This document shows positions 35,397 to 47,993 of a DNA stretch of 64,000 bases, piece after piece. Origin of the DNA: Desulfosoma sp. Its GTDB lineage: Bacteria > Desulfobacterota > Syntrophobacteria > Syntrophobacterales > DSM-9756. The notes below the pieces were generated by a model, which saw only the letters and a program-made list of their open reading frames with translations, ran no database searches and had not been told where the DNA came from. Each line of letters begins with the position of its first letter. Position 1 is the first letter of the stretch. The stretch covers positions 64,001 to 128,000 of the forward strand of contig JBBFKW010000005.1 in NCBI GenBank assembly GCA_037481835.1, read 5' to 3'. Both the position numbers and the translations under genes were made by a program.

Positions 35397-37076
35397 TTAA
35401 GCGTAACGGTTGATCCAGTACTGCTGCACGATGGACAAGACATTGTTCACAAACCAATATAGCACGAGACCGGACGGAAAGTTGACAAAGAATACGGTGA
35501 AAATGACGGGCATCATGAGCATCATCTTTTCCTGTCTCGGATCTCCCGCCGAGGGCGTCATCTTCTGCTGAATGAACATACTTGCCCCCATGAGCAAGGT
35601 CAGAACCGGCACACCCCCCAGATAGGGGACGTCAAACCCGATGAACAACCGATCCGGAGCGGTCAGATCGTTGATCCACAGCCAGAACGGCTGGTGACGC
35701 AGCTCGATGGCGCCGTAGAGCATGCGGTAGAGGGCGAAGAACACGGGAATCTGAAGCACCATGGGCAGGCACCCTCCCAGGGGGTTCACCTTGTAGGTGC
35801 GGTAGAGCATCATGAGCTCTTGGTTGAGCTTTTCCCGGTCGTCTTTGTACTTTTCCCGGATCTGGGCCATCTTGGGCTGGATCTTCTTCATGACCTGCAT
35901 GGACTTGTAGCTCTTGTGCGTCAAAGGCCAGAAGAGGATTTTGATGATCACCGTCAGGATAATGATGGCCACCCCGTAATTGTGGGCATAGTTATAGAGC
36001 CATCGAAGGAAGATCAAGAGGGGTTTGGCCAGGAAGCTGAACCAGCCGAAATCCAAGGCGCGTTCCAGGCGGCTGTCAGCCCTTTTGAGGGCCTCCAGTT
36101 CCTTGGGACCCCAGTAGTAGGTGTTGGAAACCGTCACGGCGGCGCCCGGTGCCACCGTAAAGGGATCCGTCAGATAGACAAGCTGTACCAAACCCGAATC
36201 GGGGTCGAGCAGCCGAGGGGCCACCTGGAAATGGTCCTGCACGCCCGGCAGGACCGCCTGAATGAAGTAGTTGTTTTCATAGCCGATCCAATGCATGGGC
36301 GGTTTGAGAACGGGCGTTTCCTTCTTTAGGCTCTTTTGGTCGAATTTATCCAAAGAGCCGTTTTTGAACACGGTTACATGCGACATGTTGTAAGAGGATT
36401 CCACGCCGTCAAAGGGCATGGCATAGGAGCTGATTCCCAGCTGGTCGGTCAAAGGAGCCTCGGAAAGATTCTCCACGACGACCTCCACCCCTACGGCGTA
36501 GGTTTCGGGAGAAAAGCGCAGGAGCTTTCGCACGCGGACCGTTCCGGGGATTTCCGCAGAAAGAGTCACCGTCTTTTCCCCGTCGCCCGCATTGAGTCGC
36601 ATCTCCGCCGGCCCGTCACCGTCGTAGGGCATGGTGGCCAAGGGCCAGTCCTTGTGCTGAAGCAAATCCACGGCCAGCGGCAAATACCCCGCCCCCTTTG
36701 ACGGGATGAGGTCCATGAGGGGCGAGGCGGGGTCCACTTTTTGGCGGTGTTTTTTCAGCGTGAAACTTTCAATCCGGCCGCCTGCGGACGAAATCTTCGC
36801 CGTGTAAAGGGGGGTATCCACGACCCATGTCTTGGCCGTGGCCGCACCCGGCACGGCATGCTGCTGGGGCACGCTTTTCAGATCCACCGTCGTCTGGGTT
36901 TCCGAGGGGGTGAATGGAGCGGAGGGGGCCGGAGACGTTTGGGGTTGGGCCTGGGTCGCCGTTTGGGGCGCCGAAGGCTGCTTGGCTTTCCGAGAAGTAT
37001 CGGGGGAGAGGAAAATCTCCCAGAGAAACAAGACGGCCAAAGAGAGGGCAAACGCCAGCAAGGCTCGTTTTTCCAT
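35397..37076 (-). CDS. yidC: Membrane protein insertase
   Basis: DFGWF, NYGVAII, NPLGGCLP, GLVLYW. Confidence 0.95.
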   Translation of the reverse strand: MEKRALLAFALSLAVLFLWEIFLSPDTSRKAKQPSAPQTATQAQPQTSPAPSAPFTPSETQTTVDLKSVPQQHAVPGAATAKTWVVDTPLYTAKISSAGGRIESFTLKKHRQKVDPASPLMDLIPSKGAGYLPLAVDLLQHKDWPLATMPYDGDGPAEMRLNAGDGEKTVTLSAEIPGTVRVRKLLRFSPETYAVGVEVVVENLSEAPLTDQLGISSYAMPFDGVESSYNMSHVTVFKNGSLDKFDQKSLKKETPVLKPPMHWIGYENNYFIQAVLPGVQDHFQVAPRLLDPDSGLVQLVYLTDPFTVAPGAAVTVSNTYYWGPKELEALKRADSRLERALDFGWFSFLAKPLLIFLRWLYNYAHNYGVAIIILTVIIKILFWPLTHKSYKSMQVMKKIQPKMAQIREKYKDDREKLNQELMMLYRTYKVNPLGGCLPMVLQIPVFFALYRMLYGAIELRHQPFWLWINDLTAPDRLFIGFDVPYLGGVPVLTLLMGASMFIQQKMTPSAGDPRQEKMMLMMPVIFTVFFVNFPSGLVLYWFVNNVLSIVQQYWINRYA

Positions 37077-37081
37077 GAAGG

Positions 37082-37318
37082 TCACTCCGTTGACTTCCAA
37101 AATTTTTGCGGCACGGGATCGAACCCGCCGGGATGAAAAGGATGACACCTGAGAAGCCTCCAGGCCCCCAAGAGCACGCCGGCCATCGGGCCATGCTTTT
37201 CGATGGCTTCATAGGTGTATGCGGAACAGGACGGATAGAATCGACAGTGGGCTCCAAGAAGGGGAGAAAGACACTCTTGATAAATTTTCACAGCATACAA
37301 AAGCAGCCGTTTCATCAT
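37082..37318 (-). CDS. yidD: Membrane protein insertion efficiency factor
   Basis: CRFYPSCSAY, LLRCHPFHPGGFDPVP. Confidence 0.93.
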   Translation of the reverse strand: MMKRLLLYAVKIYQECLSPLLGAHCRFYPSCSAYTYEAIEKHGPMAGVLLGAWRLLRCHPFHPGGFDPVPQKFWKSTE

Positions 37319-37710
37319 GCCATTCGCAGACCGCCTTTCCTGAAACATTCCCGGAAAAGGTCGGCCAAGTGCGGTGTGGAGAAATGCTCCGCGCCGGGCC
37401 GGGCGATGACCACGATATCCAAGCCCGGCAAAGGGACAGTGTGCTTATGGAGCCGAAACCATTCGCGCAGGCGCCTCTTGATGCGGTTGCGCTGCACGGC
37501 CTTCCAGAACCGCTTTTCCACCACGAGACCCAGGCGGTGATGGCTGAGGCCGTTGGCGGCGATATTGACGAGGAACGCACCGCAGGGAAGGCGTCGGCCT
37601 TCCCTTTTCACTCGCAAGTACTCCGAACGCTTTCTCAGCCTTTCTTCCGGTCGAAAGGACCGCGGGCCGAACCCCGCCGCCGGTGCGACCGGTCTGTGTC
37701 CTTCGGGCAT
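37315..37710 (-). CDS. rnpA: Ribonuclease P protein component
   Basis: ERLRKRSEY, RLGLVV, AVQRNRIKRRLRE (RNR motif). Confidence 0.92.
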   Translation of the reverse strand: MPEGHRPVAPAAGFGPRSFRPEERLRKRSEYLRVKREGRRLPCGAFLVNIAANGLSHHRLGLVVEKRFWKAVQRNRIKRRLREWFRLHKHTVPLPGLDIVVIARPGAEHFSTPHLADLFRECFRKGGLRMA

Positions 37711-37844
37711 CACACAGAAAGGCGCTTTCGACCCTTGGCCCGCCGGCGATTGATGACGGCGCGACCCGACTTGGTGGCCATGCGGACCAAAAACCCGTGC
37801 GTGCGTTTTCTTCTCAAGTTGTGCGGCTGGAATGTGCGTTTCAT
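37710..37844 (-). CDS. rpmH: 50S ribosomal protein L34
   Basis: Hand translation [44 protein letters not shown]; below the ORF-track length cutoff. Confidence 0.97.
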
Positions 37845-37954
37845 GAATCTTTCCTTCCCCTTTCATCGCAATGTTTGGCGCGCGGGAAGCGCTCTTCCCC
37901 GCGTTTTGTCCCTTCGGGCGCACGTAAGCCTTTCGCTCTGGAAGCGAATTGTTG

Positions 37955-37984
37955 CTTATAGTCAAGGCCCCGATTCCTTGTCAA
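37955..37984 (-). promoter_or_regulatory. Putative sigma70 promoter of the rpmH operon
   Basis: Minus strand TTGACA-18 bp-TATAAG. Confidence 0.5.
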
Positions 37985-39304: not shown

Positions 39305-39724
39305 ATGAAAAGCCATCGAAAAGAACTCTGGATGCACATCCCCGCCCGACGGGGTTTCGTCAACATCACCTCGGAGGTGGAAGCCGCCGTCCGCGAAAGC
39401 GGCATCCAGGAAGGCTTGGTCTTGGTGAACGCCATGCACATCACGGCTTCCGTCTTCATCAACGACGACGAACCCGGCCTGCTCCAGGACTACGAAGAGT
39501 GGCTCGAACGGCTCGCCCCCCATGAGCCCGTAAGCCGCTATCGCCACAACCGCACGGGCGAAGACAACGGCGACGCCCACCTCAAACGCCAAATTATGGG
39601 CCGCGAGGTCGTCGTCGCCGTCACCGGCGCCCGCCTGGATCTCGGTCCCTGGGAACAGATCTTTTATGGGGAATTCGACGGGCGGCGCCGCAAAAGGGTT
39701 CTCATCAAGATCATCGGCGCGTGA
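39305..39724 (+). CDS. yjbQ: YjbQ family (secondary thiamine-phosphate synthase)
   Basis: [38 protein letters not shown]. Confidence 0.9.
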
Positions 39725-39783
39725 GCCGACCCTCCCTTAGCCCCGCCGGCACCCCCTCCATGGCGGGCATGCGCGGAACCCGT

Positions 39784-41055
39784 CTACCGGGGATAGGTTT
39801 CCTTCATGAAGGCCGTGCACGCCGTCGTCACGGCGGAGGCCGCCAGCAGCGCAAGGAGCATGGCGCTGTAGGCTTCCACGGGATAGCCCACACCGGGTTT
39901 TGCGCCGTAGGCATCCAGCAGCCGCCCCAAGAGGGGCATGGCTGCGGCACCCCCGAGAAAAGGAAAGAGGTTCAAAGCGCCCAAGCACGTTCCCGCAATG
40001 TCCGCCGGAAAGAGCTCCTTTGCGGCCGTGAAGGCCACCACCACAACCGAGGACGAGCTGATGGAAAAGAGGAAAAAAAACGCCGTGAGCAGCCCCACGG
40101 GGAGGCCCGATGGGAATCCGTAAAGGAACCCCAGTTCCACGGTCATCGTGACGGCGCACCCCACCAGGAGCTTTTTTCGGCTTTTGAGCACCCGGTCGGA
40201 AATGATGCCCATGAGCGGCCCGCCCACGATCATTCCCCAGGCGATGAGGCTCAAGACGGCTCCGGCCTTCTCGCGGCTCATGCCGTAGACGTGCATGAGG
40301 TAGGGACCGCTCCACAGGCCGCCGAAGCCGAAAAAGATTCCGTAATTTAAAAAACACCAGAGCGCAAAAACCCAAAACTGCCCCGATTGAAGCACGCGGC
40401 CGAGCCCCTGGAAAAGGGCCGACGCCCCGGGGTTGGATGCGGCGCCCGCGGCCGAGCGGTGCGGATTCTTCACCGGGAAGAGGCCCGTTTCTTCCGCGGG
40501 ACGATCCCGAACCACAAGCCACACCACAAGCGAAATGGCCGCGGTGAGCGCTCCGATCAACTGAAACGAGGTCCTCCAGCCCAAAACGCCCGCAAGCCAG
40601 GCAAGGAGCCAGGTGGCCGCCAAGATGCCCAGGCCCCCCACGGCGTTGAGCAGCCCCGAAACGGAGGCGAATTCGGTGGGGCGAAACCACTGGGCAAGAA
40701 TTTTCATCGTGGGGATAAAGACCATGGCCGCACCGATGCCCACCAGGAATCGGCCCGCGAACGCCCAGGAAAGCGACGGGGCCAGCCCGAAGAGCGCACT
40801 GCCCACCGCAGCGAGGATGGTGAAAAAGGCCACCGTCTTTCGAGGACCGAGGGAATCGGACAGGAGCCCGGCAGGGAATTGCATGAGGGCGTAACAATAA
40901 AAATAAACGGAGCCCAAGAGTCCCAAGGACCCCGCCGACGTCTGAAAAGCCCGGGACAGTTCTTCCGCCACCACTGTCAGGGAAAGCCGATGGAAATAAA
41001 CGAAGAGATACGCACAGGCCAAAGCACCGAAAATGAACCAGCGCTGATGCTTCAT
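39784..41055 (-). CDS. MFS transporter
   Basis: About 12 hydrophobic segments; GLLSDSLGPRK and GIISDRVLKSRK motif-A loops. Confidence 0.9.
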   Translation of the reverse strand: MKHQRWFIFGALACAYLFVYFHRLSLTVVAEELSRAFQTSAGSLGLLGSVYFYCYALMQFPAGLLSDSLGPRKTVAFFTILAAVGSALFGLAPSLSWAFAGRFLVGIGAAMVFIPTMKILAQWFRPTEFASVSGLLNAVGGLGILAATWLLAWLAGVLGWRTSFQLIGALTAAISLVVWLVVRDRPAEETGLFPVKNPHRSAAGAASNPGASALFQGLGRVLQSGQFWVFALWCFLNYGIFFGFGGLWSGPYLMHVYGMSREKAGAVLSLIAWGMIVGGPLMGIISDRVLKSRKKLLVGCAVTMTVELGFLYGFPSGLPVGLLTAFFFLFSISSSSVVVVAFTAAKELFPADIAGTCLGALNLFPFLGGAAAMPLLGRLLDAYGAKPGVGYPVEAYSAMLLALLAASAVTTACTAFMKETYPR

Positions 41056-41087
41056 GACGTCACCTCAAGCCCCCCGGGGCAAAGCCT

Positions 41088-41888
41088 CTAGAGCCGTTCC
41101 AAGTGTTCCGGAGGATCGGCCCCCGGCGGTCGGACCTTCCGTCGGACTTCCTCTCGCAGCTTTTCCATCTCCACGCCCGTGAGCTCCCGCTGCGGCGCCT
41201 CCAGGACCAGCGGGGCCTCCATGTGCGCGTAGACGGTCGTCCCGGTGAGGATGCCTCGTGTCTTGGTGACGATGTGTTGGAGCATCCATCCCGAATCGCC
41301 GATGAGCACGGCGAAGCAAAACGACCCGTAGACCGTCTCCAAAATCCGAGCCCGCGCGACGGGCCCATCGGTCAGGATCGTCACGGTCCCTTCCTTGAGT
41401 TTCTCGTCCTCGGGATCCCGGGCGGCGACCACCGTCAGGCCGTCGATGCGGATTTCCCTTTTGACTAGAGGGCGTCGCACCCGCGAGGCCACATAATCCA
41501 AAACCACCCGGTGATTGGCTTCATCCACGGGTGAGAACCCGTGATAGTTCAAGTCGCCGTGGGAATGAATCCACCCGTTGACGACCCATCCCGGCTGGAG
41601 TTCTTCGTGAAAGGCCAAAAGATCCCGACTGTCCAGGCTTGTGTATTGCTGCAAATTGGCGGCATTCCGCGGAAGCCCGATATCCCTGATGACCTCGGGA
41701 CGGTCTTCTTCCCCTAAAGTGAGCCCGTACCATTCGTAGCTTTCCCCGTAAAGCTCGCGCACCAGGGAGGAAACGGCCAAGGCCTTGCTGCGCGCATAGC
41801 CCGTCATGGTCACCCGATCGGGAAATCGGCCCAAGGGAATTTCCAGCAGGGACGGCCTTTTCAAATCGTTAAGTCTTTTCAGCTTCAT
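41088..41888 (-). CDS. JAB/MPN+ (JAMM) metalloprotease-like protein
   Basis: EWYGLTLG (cf. Rpn11 EVMGLMLG) and GWIHSHGDLNYHGFSPVD (HxH..SxxD). Confidence 0.72.
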   Translation of the reverse strand: MKLKRLNDLKRPSLLEIPLGRFPDRVTMTGYARSKALAVSSLVRELYGESYEWYGLTLGEEDRPEVIRDIGLPRNAANLQQYTSLDSRDLLAFHEELQPGWVVNGWIHSHGDLNYHGFSPVDEANHRVVLDYVASRVRRPLVKREIRIDGLTVVAARDPEDEKLKEGTVTILTDGPVARARILETVYGSFCFAVLIGDSGWMLQHIVTKTRGILTGTTVYAHMEAPLVLEAPQRELTGVEMEKLREEVRRKVRPPGADPPEHLERL

Positions 41889-41904
41889 GGCCGCGAGGGC
41901 TCCT

Positions 41905-43008
41905 TTAGGCCAAAGCCGCCTTGACCTGCATGGCGTTCACTTCGTAGTCGCCCGTATGGGTTCCGGGCAGAGAAAACATGGGCTCCAGAAGCACCCGATG
42001 GAGGATGCTCGTCAGTCCCCGCGCACCCACCCCTTCTTGTTCCGCCCGGCGTGCCACCTCCAAGACGGCCTCATCGGTAAAAATCAGCCGAATGCCCCAC
42101 GCTTCGAAGTCCTTGATGAAGGCTTGCAGCGGGCTGTCCTCGCTCTTGGTGAGAATGTCCCGAAGGTTGGCCGTGGTGAGCGCATTGTAGACCACGCGGA
42201 CGGGCAGCCGCGCCATGAGTTGCCGTTCCATGCCGTAGCGCACCAAATCGTCCGGCAGGAGGTGATCCCGCCACAGTCCCTTGATCCCGAGGCGCTCCAT
42301 GCGCTTTTGAACGATCTCTTCCAGCCCTTCAAAAGCCCCTCCGGCGATAAACAGGACGTGACGGGTAGACAGGGTGAGGCGGTCCTTTCCGAATTCGATG
42401 GTGTTTTCCATCCCCTCCAGCATCTTGAGGAGCCCTTTTTGGACGCCTTTTCCCGAAACATCTTTGGTCAGGGTCTTTTCCGAGGCGATCTTGTCGATCT
42501 CGTCAAGATAGACCATGCCCGTTTGCGCCGTCAGCGCATGCCCGCCCGCCGAAACCAGAAGGTCCACCAGAATGTCCGAAGTGCTCTGTCCCACGTAGCC
42601 TGTTTCGCTGAACTTGGTGAGGTCTTCCACGATGAAAGGGACCCCGACTAACCGCGACGCCACCTCGCACGTATAGGTTTTTCCGCAGCCCGTCGGCCCC
42701 ACGATGAGGATGTTGGCCTTGGGGGTCTTGACCCGCTGTAAGGCCTTTGCCACATCGCCGCCGCTGTGCGAGGCCGCTTCCTGTAAGGCCGCCCCCAAAC
42801 GGCGGTAGTGGTAGGCAATGGCGGTGGCCAGGATCTTTTTCCCCTTTTCCTGACCAATGACGTACCGGTCCATTTCGGCCTTGAGCTGCGACGGAGTCTT
42901 GTCGAAGCCGGCGATGTGTTCCACGGTCTGGGCGGTCTTTCGGTCCCGCACTCCGTCCATTTTTTCTTGGATCCTCAACCGGCTTTCAGGAGCCATGGGC
43001 TCAGCCAT
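41905..43008 (-). CDS. Divergent ClpX/HslU-clade AAA+ ATPase lacking the zinc-binding N-domain
   Basis: YVIGQ, GPTGCGKT, GYVG pore loop, YLDEIDKI, DVSGKGVQ, GGAFEGL, RLPV, GARGL. Confidence 0.88.
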   Translation of the reverse strand: MAEPMAPESRLRIQEKMDGVRDRKTAQTVEHIAGFDKTPSQLKAEMDRYVIGQEKGKKILATAIAYHYRRLGAALQEAASHSGGDVAKALQRVKTPKANILIVGPTGCGKTYTCEVASRLVGVPFIVEDLTKFSETGYVGQSTSDILVDLLVSAGGHALTAQTGMVYLDEIDKIASEKTLTKDVSGKGVQKGLLKMLEGMENTIEFGKDRLTLSTRHVLFIAGGAFEGLEEIVQKRMERLGIKGLWRDHLLPDDLVRYGMERQLMARLPVRVVYNALTTANLRDILTKSEDSPLQAFIKDFEAWGIRLIFTDEAVLEVARRAEQEGVGARGLTSILHRVLLEPMFSLPGTHTGDYEVNAMQVKAALA

Positions 43009-43447
43009 AGGACGCCTCCAGGGCCCGTTTCTTGGCGGCGTAAAACCGATAGAGAAAGGCATAGGAATAGCGCGAGAGCAGCCGCGGAGCGATATTGGGG
43101 TTGAGGGCGTAAAGCGGCCGGCACAGCAGAAGGTCTTCCGGGGTTTCGGCCCACGCACGGTAAGGGCCTTCAATGCGGGTGGCGATGGTCTCGACAATTG
43201 CATAGGATTCGGGAGGAACGAGCGCAAACAGGGGGACCGGAACGGGCGCCTTCCGAAGCGCTCCCTGGGCAAGAGCACGAGCCGCCGTCTCTGTCTCCGG
43301 CTCCTCGTCCAGCCGCCTCAGGAAATCTTTTCCGTCCACGCCGAAAGCCGTGAGGACGGACGCCACGCGGGTAAACGCGTCGGGTTGAAAAACCAGGGGC
43401 GTCTTGCCCTGTTCCCTGTGCTTTCGAATGGCATCCCTGATGGCCAT
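43001..43447 (-). CDS. Hypothetical protein (148 aa)
   Basis: Co-oriented ORF whose stop overlaps the ATPase start by 8 bp; no recognisable motif. Confidence 0.65.
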   Translation of the reverse strand: MAIRDAIRKHREQGKTPLVFQPDAFTRVASVLTAFGVDGKDFLRRLDEEPETETAARALAQGALRKAPVPVPLFALVPPESYAIVETIATRIEGPYRAWAETPEDLLLCRPLYALNPNIAPRLLSRYSYAFLYRFYAAKKRALEASYG

Positions 43448-43600
43448 GTCTTTTCCCCGGATGATTCCGTTATGCCGGCAGACGGCTTCCCATGCGGGCA
43501 GGGGCGACCCCACGACACCCTTTTAGTCGAAGCGCCTCCAGCCTATTCGCTCCGCCCCAAACCCTGTTTTCCGCCGGGTCGCTCCAGCCCCGTCTCGCAC

Positions 43601-44812
43601 TCACGAAAAGGCGTTGGTCACGGGAACTTCTCCGGAAAGGCAGCGCGGGTCGTCCGACGGGATCTTCAAGTCGTCGAAGTGAATATCTCCTTGGAAGCCG
43701 GAGAAGTGATCCAGTCGATGATAGCCGTTTCTTTTTCGGGGATCGTACCCGTGATACAAGGCGTTCAGGCCGTCTTCCAGCGACCGGATGATGTGAGCCG
43801 CCGTAAAGGTTCGCCCTGCCGGTGAGTGCCCGAGACAGATTCTCTGCCAGGGCTGATGGCGCGGCAAAAGAGGGTGCTTGTAGCTGTCCACGACCACGGG
43901 CCAGAGGTCCTGGGAAGTCACGGCCACGCGGCAATCGGGGAAAAGGTACAGCCGGTTGTAGTAATCCCTCAGAGCATATCGGCCGCTCCGCTTGTAGATC
44001 ACGAGCTCTCCGTCGGAAGCCCTTGCGAAAAAACCGAAGCCGTCCACTTCCAGAGCCCCTCGCGTGAGCACAAAGAGCATGAAGCCCAAGGCGGGCGCGG
44101 GCCAATCCCAATACGGGCGAAGCTTTTCCCGAAAATTTTCCTGTTCCTTCCCCAAAGCTTCACGCCACGCCATCTCTAAGGAAGCCTCCAGGTCCCTTTG
44201 CAGGGTCTCGGCTCCAACGATCCGCCTCCCGGCGTCGTCGCACCCTTCACGCCCAAAGGGGCCCGGAAGCTTGGGCACTCCACGTTCGACGTCTTGGCGC
44301 CGGATATCCACAGCCCACCGATGAAAGCGTTCCGGCACTCCGACCTTTTTTGAAAGCCACAAGGCCAGGGCTTGGGGTCTGTTTCCGGCCGATTTCACCC
44401 ACGCGGGCAGACGCACAAACCGGGGAAGCACCTGGAAAAGCGCGGTTTCCAGGTGGACCGTGTTTCCAAGGACGATCCGAGCTTTTCCCTTGCCGAAAAG
44501 ATCCCGGCAGACCTTTTTTCGAATCCCTGAGGCAAGCTGCGGGAAAAGCACGGGGGCGTGACGGACGAGCCCCTCCCATGCGATGGTTTCGATGTAAGGA
44601 ACCCCTTCATGGAAAACGACCTTCGGCCCGTGGACGCCCCTTTGAAAGACTCCGGCGAAAGCTCCGCCTTCGCCCGCCTTTCGAAGCTCCCGAGCGGTCT
44701 CGGGATCCATCGGGCATGGAAGATAGACGCTCCCGCCCTTGAAAAGGACTCTGTGGTCTTGGAGATCGTCAAAAAATCTTGAGAAATGGTTTTTCTTCAC
44801 CCGGCTTTTCAT
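43601..44812 (-). CDS. Hypothetical protein with putative C-terminal E2/UBC-like domain
   Basis: Beta-rich segment, then YKHPLLPRHQPWQRICLG, then a helix (IIRSLEDGLNALY). ATGA overlap with the upstream gene. Confidence 0.55.
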   Translation of the reverse strand: MKSRVKKNHFSRFFDDLQDHRVLFKGGSVYLPCPMDPETARELRKAGEGGAFAGVFQRGVHGPKVVFHEGVPYIETIAWEGLVRHAPVLFPQLASGIRKKVCRDLFGKGKARIVLGNTVHLETALFQVLPRFVRLPAWVKSAGNRPQALALWLSKKVGVPERFHRWAVDIRRQDVERGVPKLPGPFGREGCDDAGRRIVGAETLQRDLEASLEMAWREALGKEQENFREKLRPYWDWPAPALGFMLFVLTRGALEVDGFGFFARASDGELVIYKRSGRYALRDYYNRLYLFPDCRVAVTSQDLWPVVVDSYKHPLLPRHQPWQRICLGHSPAGRTFTAAHIIRSLEDGLNALYHGYDPRKRNGYHRLDHFSGFQGDIHFDDLKIPSDDPRCLSGEVPVTNAFS

Positions 44813-45207
44813 CGCCCTTTCTCGCAAACATGAACCGGGGCGGGAAAGCCTCCCTCCTGGGGCCTTAGAGCCCTTACGGCCACGTAATAATACTTTTCAC
44901 CCTCATCGGTTTCTTCCACCCGGGCCCGTTCCAGGGGATCTCCCTCAATGGGCCGTCCTGCACACAAAAGGACCCCTCTTTCCATCTGCAGGAGAATGTC
45001 CTCGAGAATTTCCCGCTCTTCAATGGAGAGGTCCTGTCTCGCGAGAATCACGTCTACCAGCTCTTGGAGCGTCTTGCCTTCATAAGTTCCCGGCTCGAAG
45101 ACCTCCAGAAGTCCCTCGGCCGCCTGCCCCGGAAGGATTTCCACCACGAGAGGCACCGGCAATTTCCGCCGTTCCTTTTCTTTTTCCTCAAGAACCCGAA
45201 TCGTCAT
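44809..45207 (-). CDS. Putative ubiquitin-like (beta-grasp) protein with masked C-terminal GG
   Basis: KTLQELV helix start, VLLCAGRPIE (cf. ubiquitin RLIFAGKQLE), YVAVRALRPQEGG plus a 12-aa tail. Confidence 0.55.
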   Translation of the reverse strand: MTIRVLEEKEKERRKLPVPLVVEILPGQAAEGLLEVFEPGTYEGKTLQELVDVILARQDLSIEEREILEDILLQMERGVLLCAGRPIEGDPLERARVEETDEGEKYYYVAVRALRPQEGGFPAPVHVCEKGR

Positions 45208-45707
45208 CTTAGGCCCCGATTGTTTCGCGGTTTTTCTGTTATTTTGACATGGAATTTTAAGAAGTCAAAAACCGGCGACAGGCCCCTGCACAAAGGGCGG
45301 GTCTTTGCTTTGACAATCTTGAAGGAGCCGCCTTGCAGGCCATGGGATTCGCGGCAAAGCCCGATCCCATCCTTGGAGCTTTTCGGGGCTGTCGGAGCCT
45401 GTTCGGCGACACTGGATTCCCGGGCACGCCCTATCCTACGCAGGAAGGTCCCTGACCGGGGCAAGCCCTGTCGTCCGGCGGGCGGATCTTCACAGTGCCT
45501 CGGGCATGCCGGCCCGCCACATGAGGCATGCCGATGAGGACCATTATGGGGGTGCCGTTTTTCACCCGTGCGGGGCACATTCCCCCGCCAGGCCTCGTGC
45601 GTCGCAGGACTTCCCGGCCGCATTCCTCCCCCGGGCGCTTTGACATCCACACTCCCGACGAGTGTCCGGAGCCATCTCAGGCATGGATCTTCGGGGATGC
45701 GCGCGTC

Positions 45708-47993
45708 TTAGGGCTCTCGACGTCTTTTTTCTGCAACAGCCGACAAGATCGCCTGAACCCTGGGATGCCCCTTCATCGTGTCCAGATCCCAAGGCACTTT
45801 CCGTCTCCAGTTGGGATGTTCCGTGACGGTGCCCGGCACGTTGACTTGGTCGGGGACACCGCACAGGTCTTCCAGGGACAAGGCCAAGAGCTTCGATCCG
45901 GTCGCCGCCAGATAACGATAAACGGCCGCCGCACGATCGCGGCTCTGAGTCTCTTCGTCGGGAAAGCCCGGCATGTCGATTTCGTCCTCCACGTACCCCC
46001 ATGCCGAGAGAAGCTTGCGCAAGGCTTTTTGATCGGCGGTTCGGCCGAGAAGCATTTTTTCGCGAACCTCTTCGCTGGGGAAAAGATCCAGGCTTTCCCG
46101 AACCCGAAGGTCCTGGCCCTGCCAAAATCCTTCGAGAGTGGGAAGATCATGAGTGGAGAACGAGGCGACGGAAAAGGGCGGGTAGTTTTCGGGAGGCGGG
46201 AAAGAGCCGTCTTCCAGCCTTTCGAAAAAGCAGAGCCGGCAGCCGAAAAGGCGGGTCTCTTCCATGGCGGCGCGGACGCGGTCGGGAACGGTTCCCAGGT
46301 CTTCTCCGACCACGAGGCACCGGTTTCTCTCACTTTCCAAAAGCACAAGGCCCAAGAGATCCTCGAACGGGTACCGCACATAGGCGCCGTGTCGCGCATC
46401 CAGACCCGCCGGGATCCAGAACTGGCGCATGAGACCCATGACATGGTCGATGCGAAGGGCTCCGAAATCGCTCATGTTGGCCCGCAGCATGGCAATAAAC
46501 GGCTCGTAGGCGGCATCCTTGAGAGCCTGCGGCAAAAAGGGGCACACTCCCCATTCCTGCCCTTTCGGGTTGAAATCGTCCGGTGGAGCTCCAATGCGCA
46601 CCGTTAGGGCAAAAAGCGACGGGGTCAACCAGGTGTCCAGGCCGGCAGGGTCCACCCCCACGGGAAGATCCCCGTAAAGGCCGACGGCCAGGCCCCGCTC
46701 CCACGAGCGACGCCCGCAGGCGGCAAGCTGTTCCCATGCGTTCCACGCCACATAGAGGAAAAACGTCACGGCCTCGCCGTGCTCCTTGGCGAACTCCGCC
46801 ACCGCGGAAGACTTCGGATCGTGGTATGCCCGGGGCCAAAGGGGCCAGCCCCACACTGAAGGATCGCTCCGCCGAAAATGGGCATCCAAGGCATGGAAGA
46901 CCCCGTAACTTTCCAAGTCCTTGCCGCCGTCTTCCACGAATCGGCGAAACCTTCGAGCCCGTTCGGAATCTTTTGTGAGATGATGGTCCCTGAAATGCCT
47001 GTAAAGCTTCTCCAAAGCTTCCCGTTGGATCGGCCAGGCCGTTTCGTAATCCACCAAGGGGGCCCGCCGAGCGGCCTCACACGCCTCCCGGATATGATCC
47101 TCGCCGAACCAGCGACGCACCTCCTCAGACTCCCAAAACTCCGGGATCGCTTCCACGTCCACATACCACGGCTGCAGGAAACGCCGGCTGGAGGGACCAT
47201 AGGGGCTGACCTTGGAAGGGTCCTCGGGAAAAAGGAGCCACACCGGGTTGATCCCCACAAAGCCCGCTCCCACATCGGCAGCCCAGTCGAGCAGCGCCCG
47301 AAGATCGGAAAAGGTGCCGATTCCCCAGTTCTTATTCGAGCGAATCCCGTAGAGTTGGGCTGTGAGGCCCCACGTTTTCCTTTCCCCGGCAAGCGATTCC
47401 GGCACGTAAGCCTGCCGGGGAACGACGATCAGTTTCTGCCGAGCGGGCATTTCGGAAAGTCCCGCCCCGACAAAAACTTCCAAATCGTGGTACCCGATCC
47501 CCAAGGGTTCCTGGATATAGAGCACGCGACGGCTGTATCGGCCGCCGGGTCCTCCCCGTTCCTCCACCCCTTGAAGGGCGCCGATCCTTCCTTCCCCCAG
47601 CGTTTCCCATCCGTCCTCCCGGCGCAGCCGCCAACGATATGGAACACGGTCATGGGATTCGGGATAGGTGAGCATGACGGCAATGGGCGCCGTTCCCACG
47701 GGGACGACCTGGACCGGTTCCACCACGTTGCGGACGGCGCGCGCCTCAAGGGCTTCGAGGGTTTGGATGAGATCGTCCCGGCTCGCGGCGCAAAACCCGA
47801 AGCCTTCGAGCAGGGCCTTCAGGACGGCATCGTCCACGTCGTGGCGCACCCCTGAAACGTCCTCATAATGGGGGTCCACGCCGCACAAGGTCGCCACATG
47901 TTCCAAGAGAACCCGGTCCGGACTGCGTTTTCGCCCCTCGGGGTCTTCCATAAACGACGCTCGAAGCTTTTCGGGAAATCTATGGGGATTCAT
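45708..47993 (-). CDS. malQ: 4-alpha-glucanotransferase (amylomaltase, GH77)
   Basis: QLYGIRS..WGIG, SPYGPSSRRF, GAPPDDF, RIDHVMG, GEDLGTVP, STHDLPT. Confidence 0.95.
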   Translation of the reverse strand: MNPHRFPEKLRASFMEDPEGRKRSPDRVLLEHVATLCGVDPHYEDVSGVRHDVDDAVLKALLEGFGFCAASRDDLIQTLEALEARAVRNVVEPVQVVPVGTAPIAVMLTYPESHDRVPYRWRLRREDGWETLGEGRIGALQGVEERGGPGGRYSRRVLYIQEPLGIGYHDLEVFVGAGLSEMPARQKLIVVPRQAYVPESLAGERKTWGLTAQLYGIRSNKNWGIGTFSDLRALLDWAADVGAGFVGINPVWLLFPEDPSKVSPYGPSSRRFLQPWYVDVEAIPEFWESEEVRRWFGEDHIREACEAARRAPLVDYETAWPIQREALEKLYRHFRDHHLTKDSERARRFRRFVEDGGKDLESYGVFHALDAHFRRSDPSVWGWPLWPRAYHDPKSSAVAEFAKEHGEAVTFFLYVAWNAWEQLAACGRRSWERGLAVGLYGDLPVGVDPAGLDTWLTPSLFALTVRIGAPPDDFNPKGQEWGVCPFLPQALKDAAYEPFIAMLRANMSDFGALRIDHVMGLMRQFWIPAGLDARHGAYVRYPFEDLLGLVLLESERNRCLVVGEDLGTVPDRVRAAMEETRLFGCRLCFFERLEDGSFPPPENYPPFSVASFSTHDLPTLEGFWQGQDLRVRESLDLFPSEEVREKMLLGRTADQKALRKLLSAWGYVEDEIDMPGFPDEETQSRDRAAAVYRYLAATGSKLLALSLEDLCGVPDQVNVPGTVTEHPNWRRKVPWDLDTMKGHPRVQAILSAVAEKRRREP

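Follow-up and report, generated by a model that had tools for sequence, protein, structure and literature searches.

A conserved bacterial gene cassette that pairs a candidate ubiquitin-like conjugation system with a ClpX-like ATPase

Among the bacterial systems that resemble ubiquitin conjugation, CBASS type II, Bil and Bub have been characterised only recently, and none was found with an unfoldase of its own in the literature searched. In the eukaryotic 26S proteasome the JAMM protein Rpn11 sits on the Rpt AAA+ ring, and Cdc48/p97 works with deubiquitinases. Type I Bub (formerly 6E.1) encodes BubAB, a pre-protein of a ubiquitin-like protein (Ubl) and an E2 that is cut by the JAB domain of BubCD; its E2 has a catalytic serine, its E1 is without a catalytic cysteine, and the serine protease BubE is always present, according to the accessible part of the published account (PMC11601596). 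Here we analyse a stretch of 64,000 nucleotides from Desulfosoma sp. (contig JBBFKW010000005.1, positions 64,001 to 128,000; "the window", with position 1 as its first letter), in which a Ubl gene at 44809-45207 opens a cassette that continues with genes for an E2-like protein, a small protein termed P170, a ClpX-like ATPase and a JAMM peptidase, all on the minus strand. The reading that we favour, and think probable though well short of assured, is a Ubl conjugation system coupled to an unfoldase, in which the JAMM peptidase matures and probably recycles the tag; its biochemical steps are put forward from protein sequence and predicted structure.

The ubiquitin-like protein and its Gly-Gly terminus

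The Ubl precursor (44809..45207, minus strand) has 132 amino acids and an ATG start, and is predicted to yield a beta-grasp modifier whose mature part, residues 1-120, ends in PQEGG. Counted from the start at 45207, the codons of Gly119-Gly120 lie at 44848..44853 on the minus strand and would specify the reactive C-terminus after processing. They are followed on that strand by a 12-codon tail that masks the Gly-Gly pair (FPAPVHVCEKGR; 44812..44847) and by the stop codon at 44811-44809, so that the junction reads ...RPQEGG/FPAPVHVCEKGR and the translation ends YYYVAVRALRPQEGGFPAPVHVCEKGR. The initial annotation had placed the Gly-Gly codons at these same positions, with a 12-residue tail after them, and a direct count agrees.

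Conservation of the Gly-Gly pair was followed in two alignments and a wider survey. Alignment A1 comprised 40 Ubl sequences, and P116, Q117, E118, G119 and G120 were each at least 90% conserved. Alignment A2, also of 40 sequences, reached down to 20% identity; here Q117, E118, G119 and G120 were each at least 90% conserved, the exceptions being P0219, which has Gly-Ser, and P0242, which is truncated before the motif. PQEGG is kept in Ubl homologues even at 20-30% identity. The survey covered 220 Ubl sequences (140 database proteins and 80 open reading frames (ORFs) of related loci), of which 201 carried an x-x-x-G-G motif, exactly PQEGG in 189 of 198 unique ones. The motif is missing from the remaining 19, which are P0219, three entries with frameshifts (P0092-94) and otherwise fragments. 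P0090 was removed as an artefact at the N-terminus, so that 197 unique motif-bearing sequences remained.

What follows the Gly-Gly pair varies widely in these 197 sequences: 19 have no tail, 27 have a single residue, 166 have 12 residues or fewer, and the median is 6. The longest plain tail has 48 residues, and four fusions to a GNAT domain carry about 150 residues after the pair. Columns -5 to -3 had an entropy of 0.09-0.22 bits, and columns +1 to +8 one of 3.6-4.05 bits; the Gly columns are 100% in this set by construction, the motif having been used for selection. In L001, the closest relative at 89% identity, the protein stops right after the Gly-Gly pair. A conserved Gly-Gly pair with a variable tail, as the initial annotation had expected of homologues, is therefore what both alignments and the survey returned. 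Two of the three outcomes that the annotation had named as refuting, an unconserved pair and a tail conserved as a folded part, were checked and did not appear. The tail as a folded or functional part was considered and rejected, given its variable length (0 to 48 residues), an entropy of about 4 bits and low model confidence. Judged from these sequences, the Ubl tail is free of selection, and here it is essentially read-through of the spacer before the next gene.

The arrangement around the tail is compact. The ribosome-binding stretch of the next gene sits inside the tail codons, and the stop codon of the Ubl gene overlaps the start codon of the E2-like gene in an ATGA at 44812-44809, an overlap that suggests translational coupling. 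A promoter-like site (TTGACT, a 16-nucleotide spacer and CAAAAT, with TG; 45241..45268, minus strand) lies about 35 nucleotides upstream of the Ubl start codon. It was the sole match in the 6.3 kb from 39500 to 45800, with 0.9 expected by chance, and its placement upstream of the Ubl gene is suggestive only.

Relatives of the Ubl were sought in two ways. A word-indexed search returned 94 at E ≤ 0.01 among 169 candidates, all of them unnamed or "hypothetical", and an exhaustive search of 1.84 billion cluster representatives returned 47 at E ≤ 0.001, of which 23 also passed E ≤ 1e-10. The latter numbers indicate that the family is small and compact. Some relatives come from Desulfosoma caldarium and Desulfobacca acetoxidans, both cultured species, which would make experiments feasible. 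With relatives in these numbers, the Ubl reading frame is a real, conserved gene and not a chance ORF.

A structure model of the Ubl was built on A2. It was confident, with a mean predicted local distance difference test (pLDDT) of 89.3 and a predicted template modelling score (pTM) of 0.75, and its elements run in the order strand, strand, helix 47-55, helix 62-76 and four strands. Tail residues 121-132 had a pLDDT of about 62-64 and formed no secondary structure. The best Foldseek rows against the PDB were MoaD (6jc0_A, E 0.035), LC3, SUMO, FAT10 and NEDD8. With an exhaustive structural aligner (VIA), 24 chains scored Z ≥ 5 and none Z ≥ 8, a level below which a match can reflect a common arrangement; the best was di-SUMO-2 (Z 5.8, 71 residues, root-mean-square deviation 2.6 Å). 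Almost all of the VIA matches listed were of ubiquitin fold with about 70-77 residues aligned, and they include ISG15, a bacterial E1-E2-Ubl complex, MoaD and SAMP1.

We read the model as a beta-grasp with one extra helix, since strands 2 and 3 are joined by two helices instead of the one of ubiquitin-type folds, and the modest structural scores are attributed to this addition. The initial annotation had pointed to an acidic helical insertion (residues 60-75, LSIEEREILEDILLQM), which was only partly right: the model has two helices, 47-55 and 62-76, in place of the single helix of ubiquitin. It had also likened VLLCAGRPIE (residues 79-88) to RLIFAGKQLE of ubiquitin, the segment of strands 3-4. 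This resemblance fits the topology, with a strand at 79-82 and then a Gly turn, and G78, L80, L81 and G84 are conserved in the Ubl alignment.

The partner genes and their conservation

A scan of genome contigs with the Ubl family (A1) gave 102 stretches with a relative in them; the related loci analysed here are the best 80. Most belong to Thermodesulfobacteriota bins (Desulfobacca, Syntrophobacteraceae, Desulfobacteraceae, Desulfarculales), and a few are labelled Methylomirabilota, Acidobacteriota or Binatia. In tblastn searches of the 80 loci, the partners were found in the same order and on the same strand as in the window: the E2-like protein in 72, P170 in 63, the ClpX-like ATPase in 62 and the JAMM peptidase in 61. 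Most of the misses were contig ends. The 62 ClpX-like matches include one in L046 that runs in the opposite direction with 37% identity, probably a true ClpX. L046 is itself an orphan: CP070843.1 carries two Ubl copies, L059 with a full cassette and L046, 47% identical and without partner genes nearby.

Clustering of ORFs revealed a sixth conserved gene, for a ThiF-family E1 of about 415 amino acids, in 62 of the 80 loci. In L002 it is matched by PF00899 with E 2e-30 and 106.2 bits, the cut-off being 28.1. A whole JAMM reading frame is present in 60 loci: in 30 of these the E1 gene lies just after the JAMM gene, in 20 just before the Ubl gene, and ten are without it, several of them cut by contig ends. 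In the window genome the orthologue lies on a separate contig (G000 C4:1090-2505); it shares 38% identity with the L002 protein over 446 amino acids (E 1.6e-85) and matches PF00899 at 106.7 bits. In 57 aligned E1 sequences the C-terminal half carries GAGALG, DPD, NLNRQ, a conserved Lys and Asp and an invariant Cys, and the N-terminal half has the opening motif of ThiF and a degenerate glycine loop. From these motifs the N-terminal half looks like a degenerate second adenylation domain.

The gene after the Ubl encodes an E2/UBC-like protein of 403 amino acids, "P408" (43601..44812, minus strand; residue numbers refer to the 403-residue form), in which an N-terminal domain and a helical insert accompany a core with the invariant motifs. 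Its family comprises 176 relatives at E ≤ 0.001, and FPDCRV (C294), YKHP (H313, P314), Q.IC (C326) and GY..R.RNGY..L are invariant in it. The protein has no match in Pfam, NCBIfam or PADLOC, and a PDB sequence search with the family profile gave nothing below E 1.3. Its structure model (pLDDT 81, pTM 0.72) was compared by VIA, and residues ~114-384 matched E2, UEV and RWD folds, with 34 chains at Z ≥ 5 and none at Z ≥ 8. The two best matches, both at Z 6.4, were 9eav_D from the Bub complex (106 residues) and 7to3_A, the E2 domain of Cap2 (101 residues); the UEV of Tsg101 (Z 6.2), VPS37A (Z 6.2) and many eukaryotic E2s also matched, and the top 50 VIA matches listed were mostly E2, UEV or RWD chains. 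In an Atlas feature search its nearest neighbours were Prok-E2_D clusters, which made up 26 of 30 matches, with a score of 0.93 and 206 shared features.

The order of elements in an E2 is last strand, HP, Cys, helix. In the model of the 403-residue protein, H313-P314 and C326 lie between the last strand (295-299) and a helix at 338-354. C326 is the likely candidate for the catalytic cysteine, by position, because a strand, HP, a Cys 12 residues on and a helix follow one another in the E2 order. The third residue of the HP motif is Leu and not Asn.

The candidate JAMM/MPN+ type metallopeptidase (41088..41888, minus strand) has 266 amino acids and a conserved C-terminal domain. E52, H108, S109, H110, S119 and D122 are invariant in 35 JAMM sequences and fit the motif of this class, a catalytic Glu and the zinc site H-x-H ... 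S-x-x-D. Residue types in the active site of BubCD agree with the JAMM motif, in the part of the report that is accessible (PMC11601596). A PDB sequence search with the window protein gave a glycosyl hydrolase as its best match (E 0.11), which is not meaningful. A predicted complex of JAMM and Ubl precursor scored 0.00 and 0.02 against a mark of 0.32; run without controls, these scores speak neither for nor against binding. From gene linkage and the precedent of the BubCD JAB domain we infer, as the initial annotation had, that the cassette JAMM cleaves the Ubl precursor.

Trimming of the tail is not its sole task, to judge from the loci whose Ubl is tailless: JAMM is kept in six of these seven, and the seventh is cut by a contig end. 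From this pattern of gene retention, deconjugation or recycling is the obvious candidate for a second function. The stop codon of the ATPase gene and the start of the JAMM gene abut or overlap in many loci, an arrangement that fits, at the level of gene order, joint action of the two products.

The ClpX-like AAA+ ATPase (41905..43008, minus strand; start codon checked) has 367 amino acids and the core of the ClpX/HslU clade. It scores 268.5 bits against the NCBIfam ClpX model NF003745 (E 9.6e-80, profile positions 56-388 of 418) and does not reach the cut-off of 359. Aligned with the genome's own 418-residue ClpX and a 625-residue paralogue, it is missing the Cys-rich N-terminal domain that binds zinc, and the place of the G-L-G-F loop, with which ClpX docks ClpP, is taken by a 13-residue gap; Walker A and B, the GYVG pore loop and the GARGL motif are kept. 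Housekeeping ClpX was rejected as the identity of the gene, a separate full ClpX being present in the genome, and on these sequence features the product is a ClpX-like paralogue rather than ClpX. The canonical 418-residue ClpX is on contig C3 and an HslU-like gene on C10 of the same genome. The 625-residue ORF, a third ClpX paralogue, lies outside the window (G000 C4:168898-169914); its N-terminus differs, a G-V-G-F loop is retained, and about 200 residues extend its C-terminus.

Between the genes for the E2-like protein and the ATPase lies that of P170 (43001..43447, minus strand), a conserved protein of 148 amino acids whose start, Met23 of a 170-residue ORF, was fixed by homologues and an Atlas record. 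An alignment of 60 sequences gives the motif NPYL.FA.SPEE.LL...LY.LNP. It has no Pfam, NCBIfam or PADLOC match, and its Atlas scores, at most 0.85, are uninformative; it is possibly an adaptor.

Natural fusions extend past the Gly-Gly pair. A GNAT domain (PF00583, E 2e-18) is fused in frame after the Ubl Gly-Gly in L019, L022, L048 and P0217, and P0106, of 525 amino acids, consists of a Ubl 80% identical to that of the window, Gly-Gly, eight linker residues and the E2-like protein. In-frame fusions after Gly-Gly make sense only if something cuts there, and cleavage at this site is thereby implied.

Other variants were seen among the loci. The GNAT fusions lie at L019:6959-7777, L022:6959-7777 and L048:6950-7768, and GNAT occurs as a separate gene between JAMM and E1 at L005:11996-12427, L023:11661-12092 and L053:5628-6047, so that it is an occasional seventh component, in 6 of 80 loci in all. 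A conserved ORF of ~106 amino acids without a Pfam match, absent from the window, sits between the E2-like and P170 genes in 23 of the 80 loci (e.g. L005:9273-9593). A metallo-beta-lactamase-fold protein with C-terminal TPR repeats adjoins the cassette in at least two loci (L005:5744-6967, L020:12810-14033), and its ORF cluster spans 15 loci. In three loci (L012:11754-13563, L025:9584-12178, L068:230-2891) the cassette is adjoined by Amidoligase_2 (PF12224) and one or two genes like class-II glutamine amidotransferases (PF13230), which may be another peptide- or protein-modifying module.

In the window the cassette is flanked by MalQ, a phosphoglycerate mutase-like ORF and, after the JAMM gene, an MFS transporter; the MalQ and MFS genes recur beside it only in L001 among the 80 loci. 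Elsewhere in the window, a run of ORFs at 35397-37965 (minus strand), among them a 583-residue membrane protein and an 88-residue Cys-containing ORF, looks, from the translations only, like the yidC/yidD/rnpA group of the chromosome-origin region.

A candidate pathway and its alternatives

In the conjugation pathway that we favour, the cassette JAMM would cut the Ubl after Gly120 and expose PQEGG. The ThiF-type E1, in which a degenerate and an active adenylation domain stand in tandem and a Cys is invariant, would then adenylate Gly120 and form a thioester, from which the tag would move to a Cys of the 403-residue protein, presumably C326, placed like the catalytic Cys of an E2, and from there be attached to target proteins. 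The ClpX-like hexamer, without zinc finger or the usual ClpP-docking loop, would engage the tagged proteins, perhaps by way of the 148-residue protein, and unfold or extract them, and JAMM would strip and recycle the tag.

Several observations weigh against this pathway. The Ubl has no Pfam match at E ≤ 0.1, ubiquitin, ThiS and MoaD included, and none in NCBIfam. Foldseek against the PDB gave nothing at E ≤ 0.001 with the model of either the Ubl or the E2-like protein, and the structural matches of both are modest, with Z at most 6.4 and none reaching 8. No Pfam E2 family matched any of 38 members of the E2-like family at E ≤ 5, and PF14460 (Prok-E2_D) matched in none of 401 genomes sampled from the phylum, though 17 of these hold the Ubl. 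C294 is as invariant as C326, and the equivalence of C326 to the E2 cysteine is drawn from its position in the model. The JAMM protein matches Prok-JAB with E 0.078 and 13.3 bits, under the Pfam cut-off of 25 (within the family, Prok-JAB matches 18 of 35 members at E ≤ 1, the best at 0.0028, and JAB matches 3 of 35), and the spacing from its second His to Ser is 8 residues, where 7 is canonical. With the E1 gene unlinked in the window genome, its pairing with the Ubl is by orthology only, and JAMM is the sole peptidase of the cassette. Cleavage, adenylation, thioester formation, conjugation and unfolding are all projected from predicted folds, motifs and gene linkage.

A more specific form of the conjugation pathway is tentative, and we hold it as a possibility on which we would not rely: a peptidase-free bacterial pathway like that of Cdc48/p97 or a proto-19S particle, built from a ClpX-derived ring without a ClpP dock, an Rpn11-like JAMM partner and a tag attached by E1 and E2, which would selectively unfold or extract the marked proteins and would have arisen within bacteria, independent of the eukaryotic and the actinobacterial Pup systems. 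As to its biological role, we propose with low confidence that the cassette serves proteostasis or regulation.

It is also conceivable, though unlikely, that the same mechanism serves anti-phage defence, as in Bil and type II CBASS, with phage proteins being tagged and dismantled by the unfoldase. The closest characterised bacterial operons of E1, E2, JAB and Ubl, namely Bil and CBASS type II, are defence systems (PMC11601596, in its accessible part), and the distribution of the Ubl is patchy and accessory-like, with 17 of the 401 sampled genomes of the phylum and 8 of 12 in one family. However, PADLOC in its 2023 version, which may not hold Bil models, gave no match for the Ubl, the E2-like protein, P170 or JAMM, and only weak generic AAA matches for the ATPase (E 4e-4). 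Flanking genes were surveyed at 15 diverse loci (85 ORFs of 87 selected, the other two being scanned separately) and are metabolic or housekeeping in kind, among them genes for heterodisulfide-reductase-like proteins, CoA transferases, pyruvate:ferredoxin oxidoreductase, cobalamin genes, MnmE, RecR and MgtE. At E ≤ 1e-5 these flanks yielded no family of integrases, transposases, restriction or phage proteins, no relative was found in 2.9 million viral contigs, and the neighbours in the window are the MalQ, phosphoglycerate mutase-like and MFS genes described above. In the PADLOC, viral-contig and flank scans, nothing points to defence or mobility.

A reading without conjugation appears improbable. 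Here the Ubl would serve the ClpX-like/JAMM pair as cofactor, substrate mimic or regulator, its Gly-Gly would be only a JAMM site for the release of cargo such as GNAT or the E2-like protein, and the 403-residue protein would be a binder like UEV or RWD domains rather than an enzyme. Catalytically dead UEV and RWD domains do match that protein at the same level of Z (Tsg101 and VPS37A), and the E1 gene is unlinked in the window genome. A reduced cassette at L018:7001-9344 has the Ubl followed directly by the ClpX-like and JAMM genes, with no E2-like protein, P170 or E1 in 14 kb, a hint that the products of these three genes make up a functional core. On the other hand, 62 of 80 loci have an adjacent ThiF-type E1 whose nucleotide-binding motifs are intact and whose Cys is invariant, both C294 and C326 of the 403-residue protein are invariant, and an exactly conserved, free Gly-Gly, tailless in 19 of 197 sequences, is needed for activation chemistry but not for a mere cleavage site.

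A sulfur carrier of ThiS/MoaD/CysO type, whose Gly-Gly is uncapped by JAMM and thiocarboxylated by E1 and which passes sulfur to a metabolite or cofactor without conjugation, would suit the best Foldseek row (the MoaD subunit 6jc0_A), a host related to a sulfate reducer by its source names and the operons of ThiS/MoaD-like protein, JAB and E1 assigned to sulfur transfer in the accessible part of Iyer et al., 2006 (PMC1779556, Table 1 rows 4c-4e), but we give it little credence: by locus clusters and flanks, the cassette has no conserved gene for sulfur transfer, be it rhodanese, cysteine synthase or another; what is conserved instead is an AAA+ unfoldase and an E2-like protein whose Cys is invariant, and the Ubl is about 40 residues larger than its MoaD/ThiS-type matches, has an extra helix and gives no ThiS or MoaD Pfam match at E ≤ 0.1.

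Comparison with described systems

The sulfur carriers and archaeal modifiers resemble the cassette in part. To our knowledge, neither the JAB-processed sulfur carriers nor the SAMP system has an E2. Both combine a Gly-Gly beta-grasp protein, a ThiF-type enzyme and a JAMM that frees or recycles the end, and the accessible parts of the papers on the sulfur carriers (PMC1779556) and on SAMP/UbaA/HvJAMM1 (PMC4443979) describe no dedicated unfoldase; the present cassette for its part is without sulfur-transfer partner genes. The nearest neighbourhood found in the accessible part of PMC1779556 is one of ThiS/MoaD, JAB and ClpS in actinobacteria. With regard to Prok-E2_D (PF14460), the 403-residue protein is nearest to it by Atlas features, yet the PF14460 model finds no match, and in comparison with the PRTRC cassette the Ubl cassette is chromosomal with housekeeping neighbours.

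Bil has four components in common with the cassette, namely a Ubl with a Gly-Gly end, a protein of E2 fold, a JAB/JAMM peptidase and a tandem-domain E1 of ThiF type, but has no counterpart of the ClpX-like AAA+ ATPase or the 148-residue protein in the accessible part of the account (PMC11601596). Unlike in Bil, the E2-like protein of the cassette has about 400 residues, a long helical insert and no Pfam E2 match, the Ubl has an extra helix in its single domain, the surroundings are not those of a defence system, and E1 is unlinked in the window genome. Type I Bub is alike in that a JAB/JAMM cut after the Ubl makes it competent, a step that is presumed for the cassette, and in the Ubl-E2 fusion architecture that it shares with P0106; a chain of the Bub complex, 9eav_D, is also the joint best structural match of the E2-like protein. 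In contrast to Bub as presented in the accessible part of its account, the E1 and E2-like proteins of the cassette keep invariant cysteines, no BubE-like gene is present, and an unfoldase is. The word "ClpX" does not occur in the Bil and Bub papers found in the literature search. That search found no paper on an operon of Ubl, E1, E2 and JAMM with a ClpX-like ATPase; most subscription journals and supplements lay outside it, and absence from print is not established.

If conjugation and tag-dependent unfolding prove true, the cassette would offer a simple six-protein model for the reading of tags by unfoldases, a new E2-like family and a new use of the ClpX motor, and would bear on how the logic of the ubiquitin-proteasome system can arise. 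The cassette differs from the proteasome and Cdc48 in that its ATPase belongs to the ClpX/HslU clade and not to the classical AAA proteins, and in that no 20S-type or ClpP-type peptidase is encoded. It would be like them in logic, with a beta-grasp tag that ends in Gly-Gly, an AAA+ unfoldase and, encoded beside the ATPase, a JAMM that could remove the tag during threading. A Gly-Gly tag, an E1, an E2-like protein, a JAMM peptidase and an AAA+ unfoldase would together make up the core wiring of eukaryotic ubiquitin-dependent unfolding, assembled from bacterial parts.

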